From NCBI RefSeq assembly GCF_029227855.1, contig NZ_CP074356.1: a stretch of DNA of 64,000 nucleotides; one strand, 5' to 3'. The stretch is from Escherichia coli. Its GTDB lineage: Bacteria > Pseudomonadota > Gammaproteobacteria > Enterobacterales > Enterobacteriaceae. The position numbers and the translations under genes are program-made. The stretch's first letter is position 1, and each line of letters starts with the position of its first letter. The notes beneath the pieces were generated by a model. It saw only the letters and a list, made by a program, of their open reading frames with translations, ran no database searches and was not told where the DNA came from. Shown here piece after piece: positions 43,146-44,363 of this stretch.

Positions 43146-43266
43146 TTGACAACATCTGGTACGATTCGCCCGCAGCCATTACTGACCGCGGGCGAAAGTG
43201 TAAAGCAGGTGCCTTACCATCCTGACCTGACAACCGGATATGCGGGGATTGCTCCCCGCACAACGG

Positions 43267-43419
43267 CTACTTCTTCGGTTCGTAAGCGAGAACAGCCTTA
43301 AACTCAATATTACGTTCCTTCACCGTAAACTCACACAGCGAGTCGCGGACCAGAAGCGTAAATCCCAGCACCGTTAAACACAGCACTATGACTGCCACAA
43401 GGGCATATTTCGTCAGCAT
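43267..43419 (-). CDS. hokE: Hok-family membrane toxin, copy A, 50 aa (Arg at position 25)
   Basis: ORF 43267..43455; Hok start at ATG 43419 with GGAGG Shine-Dalgarno: [50 protein letters not shown]. Confidence 0.8.
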
Positions 43420-43519
43420 GTTTATATTGCCTCCATGCGAAGAAGGGACTACCATCCGAGTTGTTCAGGTTTGGGTAGGTAGCCCCAGGGTTGATAGAAA
43501 TATCGTCCTGGGGCTTCAT
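43331..43519 (-). CDS. mok-like overlapping reading frame of hok copy A, 62 aa
   Basis: ORF track 43331..43519 ([20 protein letters not shown]...), starts upstream of hok and overlaps it out of frame, the arrangement known for mok in hok/sok loci. Confidence 0.4.
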
Positions 43520-43670
43520 CTTTCCAGACCTCAGAGTTAACCTGAAACCGGAAAGCTTCAGGCACCCGCCGTTATCTTACCCTTCCTCAGCAAAATAGCT
43601 GTTTATTTATACAGTGAATCCTGTTTCGGACTTCTGTTGGCAAAACTGATCATTGCCCTTAAAACGACAT

Positions 43671-44139
43671 CGCCCGCAGCCATTGCTGACCGCGGGCGAA
43701 AGTGTAAAGCAGGTGCCTTACCACCCTGACCTGACAACCGGATATGCGGGGATTACTCCCCGCACAACGGCTACTTCTTCGGTTCGTAAGCGAGAACAGC
43801 CTTAAACTCAATATTACGTTCCTTCACCGTAAACTCACACAGCGAGTCTCCGACCAGAAGCGTAAATCCCAGTACCGTCAAACACAGCACTATGACTGCC
43901 ACAAGGGCATATTTCGTCAGCATGTTTATATTGCCTCCATGCGAAGAAGGGACTACCATCCAAATTGTCTGGTTTGGAGTGGCAGCCCCAGGGTTGATAG
44001 AAATATCTCCTGGGGCTTCATCTTTCCAGACCTCAGAGTAAACCTGAAACCGGAAAGCTTCAGGCACCCGCCGTTATCTTACCCTTCCTCAGCAAAATGG
44101 CTGTTTATTTATACAGTGAGTCCTGTTTCGGACTTCTCA
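43671..44139 (-). other. hok/sok-type type I toxin-antitoxin locus, copy B (hokE-like), boundaries approximate
   Basis: Tandem direct repeat of copy A with a 504-bp period; same stem-loops; differs by several substitutions and small indels in the mok/leader region. Confidence 0.8.
43771..43923 (-). CDS. hokE: Hok-family membrane toxin, copy B, 50 aa (Gly at position 25)
   Basis: ORF 43771..44067; Hok start at ATG 43923 with GGAGG Shine-Dalgarno: [50 protein letters not shown]. In this copy the upstream frame is fused in-frame to hok. Confidence 0.8.
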
Positions 44140-44363
44140 CTCCTAATTTGATCAACTGAAGCTGAACCCGTTTTTTTCTGCATGCCTCAATCGTCAAAAT
44201 TCTTCGCCACCAGCCAGCTCTGCCATAACTTGTCACATTGCAAAAGTAGCCAAATTGCTTCAGTCACCATCACCAAAAAAAAGAAACATTCCAGAACTTC
44301 CGCATCTCGCCCAGCCGCTCCGACTTCTATACTGAATAGAAAACGCCAACATAAGAGAAACCT

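Follow-up and report, generated by a model that had tools for sequence, protein, structure and literature searches.

Two-copy hokE/sokE arrays between entD and ybdK in Escherichia coli: a common arrangement with variable upstream reading frames and Sok targets

The closest described relatives of the locus analysed here are chromosomal hokE/sokE of Escherichia coli K-12 (b4415/b4835), the hok-2.1/hok-2.2 pair of the AIEC strain NRG857c and the hok/sok (parB) system of plasmid R1. In Escherichia, 13.5% of chromosomal hok genes sit in islets. K-12 MG1655 has a single hokE, which adjoins ybdK on its entD side, and IS186B lies between hokE and entD, inserted in a hairpin 19 nt past the stop codon so that the fbi element and the terminator are parted from the gene. 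A tandem hokE was described for NRG857c in 2020 (PMC7232551), and RefSeq annotates two hokE genes in O157:H7, O111, IAI1 and ST131; in all of these the array occupies the same site with the same period of 502–504 bp. Tandem copies within one intergenic region whose differences are concentrated in the RNA pairing region are also known for ibs/sib, ldr/rdl and zorO–orzO/zorP–orzP (PMC2887945; PMC3919570), but these belong to other toxin and RNA families, and discrimination by Sok at the present locus is a prediction. The HokE coding sequence is toxic when overexpressed, and TadA-mediated A-to-I editing of hokE at position 46 (Tyr to Cys) has been reported (bioRxiv 10.1101/2025.08.07.668861); as cited in the same preprint, the chromosomal hokA, hokB and hokC loci show no post-segregational killing.

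Our window is a 64,000-nt stretch of an E. coli chromosome (NZ_CP074356.1), in which the spacer bounded by entD (end, 43145) and ybdK (start, 44364) very probably holds a two-copy hokE/sokE type I toxin–antitoxin array, controlled by the SOS response and by Sok, that arose through an old duplication followed by mixing of the copies. Its units and coding sequences are as follows.

43166–43634, minus strand: repeat unit A, the entD-proximal hokE/sokE module (families D1, D4 and D2, and pairwise alignment)
43670–44136, minus strand: repeat unit B, the ybdK-proximal hokE/sokE module (direct-repeat families and pairwise alignment)
43635–43669, no strand: 35-nt spacer between the units, holding the U-rich tail of the copy B terminator
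43267–43419, minus strand: hok A coding sequence, 50 amino acids, Arg25 allele, WP_000956470.1 (Pfam HOK_GEF, 39.7 bits)
43771–43923, minus strand: hok B coding sequence, 50 amino acids, Gly25 allele, WP_000956465.1 (Pfam HOK_GEF, 33.8 bits)
43282–43284, minus strand: Tyr46 codon UAC of copy A in a UUACGAA loop, from the sequence and a predicted hairpin loop (copy B, 43786–43788)

Pairwise alignment gives direct repeats that are about 96% identical with a period of 502–504 bp. Repeat family D1 (43166–43464 and 43670–43968; 299 nt, 97% identity, spacing 504) is extended by families D4 and D2 at spacings of 503 and 502, and the 35-nt spacer has only about 60% similarity, judged by eye, to either outer flank, each considered as its possible source. 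Tandem Repeats Finder reported no repeats in the window, as the longest period it detects is 500. The two Hok proteins differ solely at residue 25, which is Arg (CGC) in A and Gly (GGA) in B. K-12 HokE is one residue from copy B (Ala8 for Val8) and two from copy A (Ala8 for Val8 and Gly25 for Arg25). Both proteins cover positions 1–42 of the 42 in Pfam PF01848 HOK_GEF (E = 3.7e-10 for A and 2.5e-8 for B), by which we judged Hok/Gef family membership; the NCBIfam HokA and Hok-family models also match both, at scores below their curated cut-offs. Purifying selection on the Hok reading frame is indicated by a pN/pS of 0.13 within Escherichia and a dN/dS of 0.19–0.27 against other genera.

The Rfam hok/sok leader (RF01794) is matched over the full model length in both copies at 76.0 (A) and 83.7 (B) bits against a gathering score of 59, which argues against a chance match. 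The first-pass annotation had proposed, from the letters alone, a tandem duplication of a hokE-type locus with a period of about 504 bp at the place where K-12 has a single hokE with IS186, an intact 50-residue Hok in each copy with Arg or Gly at residue 25, and a leader hairpin and 3′ stem-loop kept in both. The repeat families, alignments, translations, Rfam matches, predicted folds and K-12 comparison agree with these points.

That the tandem arrangement is an assembly artefact, a possibility the same annotation had raised, deserves practically no credence. We found no point in its support; the predicted mRNAs of A and B differ at 17 positions, so the copies do not stem from collapsed or doubled reads, and a complete genome in which RefSeq annotates two hokE genes matches the region at 100% identity. 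The arrangement as such is real: it recurs in complete genomes of different phylogroups, as well as in further Escherichia species.

A survey of copy number among E. coli genomes had been suggested, and we ran it using as the two-copy marker the 70-mer at 43618–43687 that crosses the spacer. With blastn and 11-nt words, the junction was present in 2,404 of 5,426 complete genomes (about 44%), including IAI1, O157:H7, O111 and ST131. Megablast returned the junction in only 759 genomes, an undercount because diverged junctions lack an exact 28-nt word. Outside E. coli, tandem hokE occurs in E. whittamii at the entD–ybdK site and in Escherichia sp. MOD1-EC7003 adjoining ybdK. Copy number among Escherichia strains ranges from one to three, with three copies in strain MSHS 133; strain Yu5 has a frameshifted hok, and in MS6193 one copy is replaced by ISEcp1. 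The rarity of the duplication implied by the first-pass annotation was therefore mistaken: given its frequency, the RefSeq annotation and the earlier publication (PMC7232551), the arrangement is ordinary and the tandem hokE array is already known.

Transcript ends for hok and Sok were assigned by homology. For hok, the predicted messenger and its elements are as follows.

43166–43567, minus strand: predicted full-length hok mRNA A, about 402 nt (Rfam match 43411–43567), its 5′ end set by homology to the Rfam model and R1 with an accuracy of about 2 nt
43670–44069, minus strand: predicted full-length hok mRNA B, about 400 nt (Rfam match 43915–44069)
43560–43567, minus strand: tac-like 5′ end of mRNA A, nt 1–8, GGGUGCCU, from minimum free energy (MFE) pairing (copy B, 44062–44069)
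43207–43214, minus strand: fbi-like 3′ element of mRNA A, nt 354–361, AGGCACCU, from MFE pairing (copy B, 43711–43718)
43166–43195, minus strand: 3′ terminal stem-loop of mRNA A, from inverted repeat I1 and the MFE fold (copy B, 43670–43699, then UGUCGUUUUA)
43240–43261, minus strand: GC-rich hairpin directly after the hok stop, mRNA nt 307–328, helix 16 of the predicted fold

Both messengers are predicted to fold stably, with an MFE of −174.5 kcal/mol (z = −7.41) for A and −177.6 kcal/mol (z = −7.25) for B, and in the MFE fold nucleotides 1–8 pair with nucleotides 354–361 in A and 352–359 in B. Across 17 sequences from five genera, compensatory changes fall at 15 pairs, compared with 3.2 ± 1.4 after shuffling (0 of 500 shuffles reached the observed value) and 2–4 in slid controls. 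Helix 1, which joins the two ends, is paired at 96% in these sequences and has no double-sided changes; helix 17, the 3′ terminal stem-loop, has two compensatory pairs. The post-stop GC-rich hairpin is likely to be the 3′ end protector of the processed mRNA, and the K-12 IS186 insertion falls within it. These features resemble R1 hok/sok, which shares the Hok/Gef toxin, the Rfam leader family, the pairing of 5′ and 3′ ends, a hairpin of Shine–Dalgarno (SD)-like and anti-SD segments, dcb-like pairing with a Sok promoter overlapping dcb, and a Sok composed of a 5′ tail and a terminator hairpin. Unlike R1, hokE has no mok start at the homologous position, has GGGG in place of the GAGG SD of mok, carries a LexA box that is absent from the R1 alignment, and is chromosomal.

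Two opposed transcripts would be produced from each unit, and their predicted control elements are as follows.

43599–43614, minus strand: LexA box A, CTGTATAAATAAACAG, −47 to −32 of the hok promoter, by motif match
44101–44116, minus strand: LexA box B, the same 16-mer as A, by motif match
43574–43579, minus strand: putative hok −10 of copy A, TAAGAT, read from the sequence and aligning with TATAAT of hokC and TATGAT of R1 (copy B, 44076–44081)
43427–43455, plus strand: Sok promoter A, by homology, with −35 TTGCCT at 43427–43432, a 17-nt spacer and −10 TACCAT at 43450–43455 (copy B, 43931–43959)
43463–43523, plus strand: Sok A, 61 nt, with a single-stranded 5′ tail, a stem-loop and a U-rich end, mapping onto K-12 sokE (b4835, 607733–607792)
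43967–44025, plus strand: Sok B, 59 nt, from the K-12 sokE annotation mapped on
43458–43482, minus strand: hypervariable patch of copy A, mRNA nt 86–110, the Sok 5′-tail target with a small hairpin, from the A/B differences (copy B, 43962–43984)

The pattern CTGT-N8-ACAG has two matches in the window, against an expectation of zero, and each is a perfect LexA box that covers the −35 region of a hok promoter. The first-pass annotation had passed over these boxes. K-12 hokE shares the LexA box, and it is conserved in hokE orthologues of Citrobacter, Phytobacter and Pseudocitrobacter. hokE is counted among the classical LexA-box genes (HI 4.9; PMC11228462, PMC2826370). Published induction data are mixed: a hokE gene rose 3.5-fold in EHEC EDL933 exposed to ciprofloxacin (PMC11125564), and AZT gave no induction of hokE in K-12 (0.47-fold; PMC11228462).

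Each copy appears to have a cis-encoded antisense Sok opposite its leader with a predicted promoter of its own. The Sok promoter hexamers are identical in copy A, copy B and K-12, whose SokE is nearly identical; other genera keep TTGCCT and retain the −10 as TAnnAT, and in the R1-like sequence the analogue, by our own reading and not an annotated feature, is TTGCGC-17-TATCCT. A consensus promoter scan of both strands called neither the hok nor the Sok promoter; both share just 8 of the 12 consensus positions, and their placement relies on homology. An in-frame ATG 36 nt upstream of hok was considered as a mok start and rejected: it is the Sok −10 TACCAT read on the opposite strand, and other genera vary at this position as a −10 would (TACTAT, TAACAT) and not as a start codon would.

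Differences between the copies are concentrated where the 5′ tail of Sok would pair. Of the 17 A-versus-B differences, 8 fall within the 25-nt patch (P = 3e-6, for a patch window chosen after the data had been inspected), and across all copies divergence is 0.165 per site in the patch and 0.027 elsewhere. In each of the 12 two-copy genomes examined, the two patches differ. The patch hairpin (helix 7) shows compensatory AU-to-GC changes and is therefore constrained rather than junk, and the predicted 5′-tail duplex has −35 to −36 kcal/mol for cognate and −17 kcal/mol for non-cognate pairs. These observations could mean that the copies are distinct modules, each Sok controlling mainly its own mRNA through diverged tails and targets, so that the array would comprise two separately tuned SOS-inducible toxins. 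We regard this as unlikely: the remaining approximately 40 nt of Sok A and Sok B are nearly identical and full non-cognate Sok/hok duplexes are still predicted at about −100 kcal/mol, the patches differ by only two columns in 5 of the 12 genomes, the patch window was picked post hoc, and the variability could merely reflect a lost mok coding constraint. A G/A site of the 3′ untranslated region, at mRNA nt 348, was checked for covariation with patch type, and the result was inconsistent across genomes. Faridani et al. (2006) make no mention of hokE.

The distribution of patch alleles bears on the history of the array. The exact patch of copy A occurs in 113 of the 5,426 genomes, the Arg25 allele of hok A in 285 and the patch allele with a truncated upstream reading frame in about 1,120. 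Our strain has its type I patch together with the overlapping upstream reading frame and Arg25 in the entD-proximal copy, whereas ST131, O111 and IAI1 carry the type I patch in the ybdK-proximal copy. Both E. whittamii copies have Ala17 and Arg25, with identical coding sequences. The swapped patch types and the identical E. whittamii coding sequences argue for mixing between copies. Each copy of our strain also departs from the family consensus, A by two A–C mismatches in its Sok-target hairpin and B by its truncated upstream reading frame.

The upstream reading frames are as follows, all taken from the list of open reading frames.

43331–43519, minus strand: upstream-ATG frame of copy A, 62 amino acids, overlapping hok out of frame
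43953–44021, minus strand: upstream-ATG frame of copy B, 22 codons, with a TAG stop 14 nt before the hok SD GGAGG
43771–44067, minus strand: mechanical 98-amino-acid frame of copy B, in frame with hok, from a GTG at mRNA nt 3–5

Copy A had been credited with a classical mok. An overlapping out-of-frame reading frame does exist there, but it is not homologous to mok of R1 or hokC: its ATG lies 51 nt upstream of the R1/hokC mok ATG position, and alignment of hokE to K-12 hokC and the R1-like plasmid locus found no canonical mok start, with CCAAAC in its place. In chromosomal hokC, moreover, an in-frame mok is itself classical. The 98-amino-acid fused frame attributed to copy B likewise exists mechanically, but its GTG is probably no real start, lying within the tac element with no space for a ribosome-binding site, and the upstream ATG gives just 22 codons. 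We found no mok leader frame that follows a ucb-sequestered SD and reads through the hok start; a frame reading through that start is present in copy A and absent from copy B. The upstream ATG is restricted to Escherichia: the hokE orthologues of Citrobacter, Phytobacter and Pseudocitrobacter lack it. In 31 natural copies, with each strain counted once, its frame overlaps hok in 10 (one of them on a frameshifted hok), is fused in frame in 11 and is truncated in 10, giving 62-amino-acid overlap, 83-amino-acid fusion and 22-amino-acid truncation states. The K-12 ATG is fused in frame with hok, unlike those of copies A and B, and the outgroups E. albertii and Escherichia sp. E1V33 also have the fused state. 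Because the frames vary and the outgroups are fused, the overlap in copy A is one of three states and need not be ancestral.

Toxicity in R1 is lost when mok contains a stop codon ahead of the hok start (PMC9841398). By this rule toxin could be made from copy A, whose upstream frame passes through the start of hok, but not from copy B, whose frame ends before the hok SD; the rule may not apply to hokE, however, because this lineage has no conserved mok. Copy B could accordingly be read as silent and decaying, within neutral copy-number variation produced by unequal crossing-over. The range of one to three copies, the hok frameshift in Yu5, the ISEcp1 replacement in MS6193 and the IS186 hit on the K-12 copy are in keeping with this, but we think it rather unlikely. 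The truncated-frame allele is widespread, and O157:H7 and FCI48 carry it with the overlapping frame in neither copy. Orthologues in other genera lack the upstream ATG and keep a conserved Hok, which makes an essential role for this ATG unlikely. Copy B has an intact coding sequence, purifying selection acts on the hok gene taken as a whole, and the RNA of copy B folds no less stably than the RNA of copy A.

For the preferred reading, an SOS- and Sok-controlled array, the following mechanism is suggested by R1 and by published work on hokE. LexA would keep hok weakly transcribed until the SOS response is induced. Full-length hok mRNA would be closed and untranslatable, and slow trimming of its 3′ end would open it. 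Constitutive and unstable Sok would pair with leader nt 45–105 and trigger decay, so that toxin production would require hok mRNA to outrun Sok. The array most likely goes back to an old local duplication, after which copy number was altered and the copies were mixed, most likely by unequal crossing-over and gene conversion.

More speculatively, hokE-type loci might work without any mok frame while differences between the copies are maintained specifically in the 5′ tail of Sok and in the target hairpin, each Sok preferentially silencing its own mRNA. We consider this combination quite improbable; if it were true, E. coli would have two or three SOS-inducible membrane toxins, each tuned independently. 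The tandem hokE carries little weight as a discovery, being a known polymorphism of a well-studied toxin–antitoxin family. Its value, which is modest, is as a natural comparison set with one to three copies, three upstream-frame states and several Sok-target alleles, variants that could address the need for a mok-like leader in hokE and target discrimination by duplicated Sok RNAs. The array also matters for the reading of SOS and persister phenotypes in K-12, whose sole copy is disrupted by IS186.

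A tandem hokE-type hok/sok duplication between entD and ybdK, proposed in the first-pass annotation, is correct: a repeat search and pairwise alignment place two direct repeats in this spacer, with fepA–entD on one side and ybdK on the other. The direct repeat at 43166–43464 and 43670–43968 (299 nt, 97% identical) has a spacing of 504, which drops to 503 and then 502 along the repeat because of two single-base indels. Tandem Repeats Finder reported no repeat at the array, as its period limit is only 500. Matches to Pfam HOK_GEF span the entire model in both Hok proteins (39.7 bits for the Arg25 form versus 33.8 bits for the Gly25 form), and the hok/sok leader family of Rfam (RF01794, threshold 59) matches unit A at 76.0 bits and unit B at 83.7 bits, which bears out the hok/sok assignment. 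As had also been read, the two proteins differ solely at residue 25, which is Arg (CGC) in copy A and Gly (GGA) in copy B.

Features of the hokE array (window positions)
43146–44363: entD–ybdK spacer, containing two direct repeats
43166–43634: unit A, entD-proximal, by pairwise alignment
43670–44136: unit B, ybdK-proximal, by pairwise alignment; 35-nt spacer between units A and B
43267–43419, minus strand: hok A CDS, 50-aa Hok
43771–43923, minus strand: hok B CDS, 50-aa Hok
43567 to 43166: predicted full-length hok mRNA A
44069 to 43670: predicted full-length hok mRNA B
43463–43523, plus strand: predicted Sok A, mapped from K-12 sokE
43967–44025, plus strand: predicted Sok B, mapped from K-12 sokE
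43458–43482 and 43962–43984: hypervariable patch of hok mRNA A and B targeted by the Sok 5′ tail
43599–43614: LexA box A, CTGTATAAATAAACAG, −47 to −32 of hok promoter A
44101–44116: LexA box B, CTGTATAAATAAACAG, −47 to −32 of hok promoter B

The tandem array is already known, common and annotated, and the arrangement is therefore of low interest in itself. Escherichia coli JNEC-KY178 has a 1.7-kb region 100% identical to the window, in which RefSeq annotates two hokE genes, and the copy-junction 70-mer occurs in 2,404 of 5,426 complete E. coli genomes, among them IAI1, O111, O157:H7 and ST131. The same duplication was described in AIEC NRG857c as hok-2.1 and hok-2.2, 504 bp apart (PMC7232551); a survey found that such islets, ascribed to local duplication, hold 13.5% of the chromosomal hok genes of Escherichia (bioRxiv 10.1101/2025.08.07.668861), and type I loci are prone to tandem duplication (Fozo et al. 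2010, PMC2887945). Array size among strains is one to three copies, with a single copy in Z142-4 and K-12 (with IS186) and three between entD and ybdK in MSHS 133 (L071 947–2106). Beyond E. coli, hokE is tandem between entD and ybdK in E. whittamii and adjoining ybdK in Escherichia sp. MOD1-EC7003, and is single in E. albertii and Escherichia sp. E1V33.

The FepA and EntD proteins of Z142-4 (L002) are the same as in the window-identical genome, yet it has only one hokE. This gene joins the copy A CDS (Arg25) and entD-side flank to the ybdK-side 5′ flank, with a different patch type, as would be expected if a two-copy array had collapsed through recombination between its copies. In MS6193 (L013 1228–2039), an ISEcp1 family transposase gene lies in place of the ybdK-proximal hokE, beside the remaining copy. 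The entD-proximal hokE of ST131 (L005 1–2493) adjoins two SDR oxidoreductase genes and an ABC transporter permease gene, not entD; the ST131 match to the window begins only at query position 266.

Overlooked in the first-pass annotation, a LexA box lies over each hok promoter (two matches found, none expected). hokE has long been on lists of LexA-box genes, with an HI of 4.9 (PMC11228462; PMC2826370).

Both predicted hok mRNAs fold far better than shuffled sequence (z = −7.41 for A and −7.25 for B). Their minimum-energy folds pair nt 1–8 with a 3′ element (nt 354–361 in A, 352–359 in B), resembling the tac/fbi closure of R1, and contain a 5′ hairpin, a hairpin burying the SD-like GGGG, a GC-rich hairpin directly past the stop codon and a terminal stem-loop; the leader hairpin and 3′ stem-loop noted earlier are thus present in both copies. 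In an alignment of 17 sequences from Escherichia, Citrobacter, Phytobacter and Pseudocitrobacter, compensatory changes occur at 15 pairs of the consensus structure versus 3.2 ± 1.4 in shuffles (0 of 500) and 2–4 in controls with pairing partners slid by one to three columns. The Tyr46 codon of both copies falls in a predicted UUACGAA loop, the context in which hokE is reported to be edited by TadA (bioRxiv 10.1101/2025.08.07.668861).

K-12 sokE is annotated in RefSeq as a 60-nt RNA with its 5′ end 44 nt upstream of the hokE ATG. Predicted Sok A and Sok B each run from a single-stranded 5′ tail through a stem-loop to a U-rich end. Just upstream is a putative promoter, TTGCCT-17 nt-TACCAT, the same in copy A, copy B and K-12; at the matching position of R1 we read TTGCGC-17-TATCCT from the L006 sequence. 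hokE orthologues in other genera retain TTGCCT and restrict −10 variation to TAnnAT.

The earlier reading of a classical mok-like ORF in copy A and a 98-aa fused ORF in copy B is partly wrong; both frames exist mechanically. When hokE was aligned with K-12 hokC and the R1-like plasmid locus, no canonical mok start was found: hokE has CCAAAC where they have ATATG, and GGGG where they have GAGG before the start. The 62-aa ORF of copy A, which is thus no mok homologue by its start, begins 51 nt farther upstream (mRNA nt 49), at an ATG missing from the Citrobacter, Phytobacter and Pseudocitrobacter orthologues. The copy B ORF opens with a GTG at mRNA nt 3–5, inside the tac element, which is probably not a real start.

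Frame from the upstream ATG in 31 natural copies (E. coli and other Escherichia, one count per strain)
62-aa ORF overlapping hok out of frame: 10 of 31 (one on the frameshifted hok of Yu5); window copy A and the ybdK-proximal copies of ST131, O111 and IAI1
83-aa ORF fused in frame with hok: 11 of 31; K-12, E. albertii, Escherichia sp. E1V33 and both E. whittamii copies
Truncated, 22 codons: 10 of 31; window copy B, the ST131 entD-proximal copy and the O157:H7 ybdK-proximal copy

Both copies in O157:H7 and in FCI48 lack an overlapping upstream ORF. An in-frame mok is normal in hokC, where mokC and hokC have a common stop codon. In R1, mok translation has to reach the hok SD (PMC9841398); under that rule Hok could be made from copy A but not from copy B, whose upstream ORF ends 14 nt short of GGAGG. 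Since the hokE lineage has no conserved leader frame, it is doubtful that the R1 rule applies to hokE. RefSeq also annotates hypothetical-protein ORFs opposite hok, overlapping the hok leader and Sok and often flagged as frameshifted or partial (43388–43540 and 43744–44151, plus strand; 3489–3752 and 3993–4260 in comparison locus L001). These look like spurious calls, with frame breaks at the indels that also shift the upstream-ATG frame.

Other Rfam matches in the window
9434–9542, plus strand: rnk leader, 118 bits, directly upstream of the first STnc490 copy
9548–9671, plus strand, and 48911–49034, minus strand: STnc490, about 145 bits each
14059–14152, minus strand: STnc70, weak (44.1 bits versus 40)
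42425–42466, plus strand: ES036 (CssrF) sRNA at the fepA–entD junction, entD 5′ end; 42.2 bits, barely above the threshold of 37.6

The STnc490 copies lie 39 kb apart in inverted orientation, and their identity runs more than 220 nt past the matches into an ORF starting MGNEKSLAHTRWNCKYHIVFAPK, which we take to resemble an IS200-family transposase. Each STnc490 copy is probably the left end of its own IS200-like element.

Purifying selection acts on the Hok reading frame (pN/pS = 0.13 for 20 Escherichia alleles; dN/dS = 0.19–0.27 versus other genera), although RNA-structure constraint on the same bases may account for part of these low values. Arg25, found in 285 genomes, is nearer the family consensus than Gly25. 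Copy A departs from consensus in two A–C mismatches in the small hairpin of the Sok-target patch (only 1 of 17 sequences has two); its exact patch, apparently a chimera of two common types, occurs in 113 genomes. Copy B departs in its truncated upstream ORF, and its patch allele recurs in about 1,120 genomes. Neither departure is private to the window strain. The ybdK-proximal hok of Yu5 (L014 970–1124), frameshifted and annotated as a pseudogene, is real decay of one copy.

Copies A and B differ at 17 positions within the mRNA, 8 of them inside nt 86–110, the pairing site of the Sok 5′ tail (binomial P = 3 × 10⁻⁶, for a window picked after the data were seen). Across all copies, differences per site are 0.165 in the patch versus 0.027 elsewhere, and the two patches are unlike each other in 12 of 12 two-copy genomes examined. 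Relative to ST131, O111 and IAI1, the window strain carries the patch types at swapped sites. E. whittamii has the same CDS in both hok copies, suggesting gene conversion or recent re-duplication. Predicted Sok 5′-tail duplexes reach −35 to −36 kcal/mol for cognate pairs versus −17 kcal/mol for non-cognate pairs; full-length non-cognate duplexes are still strong, at a predicted −100 kcal/mol or so. Diverged antitoxin specificity, of the kind reported for the duplicated zorO–orzO/zorP–orzP locus (PMC3919570), would fit this pattern, and relaxed constraint where mok coding was lost would fit it equally well.
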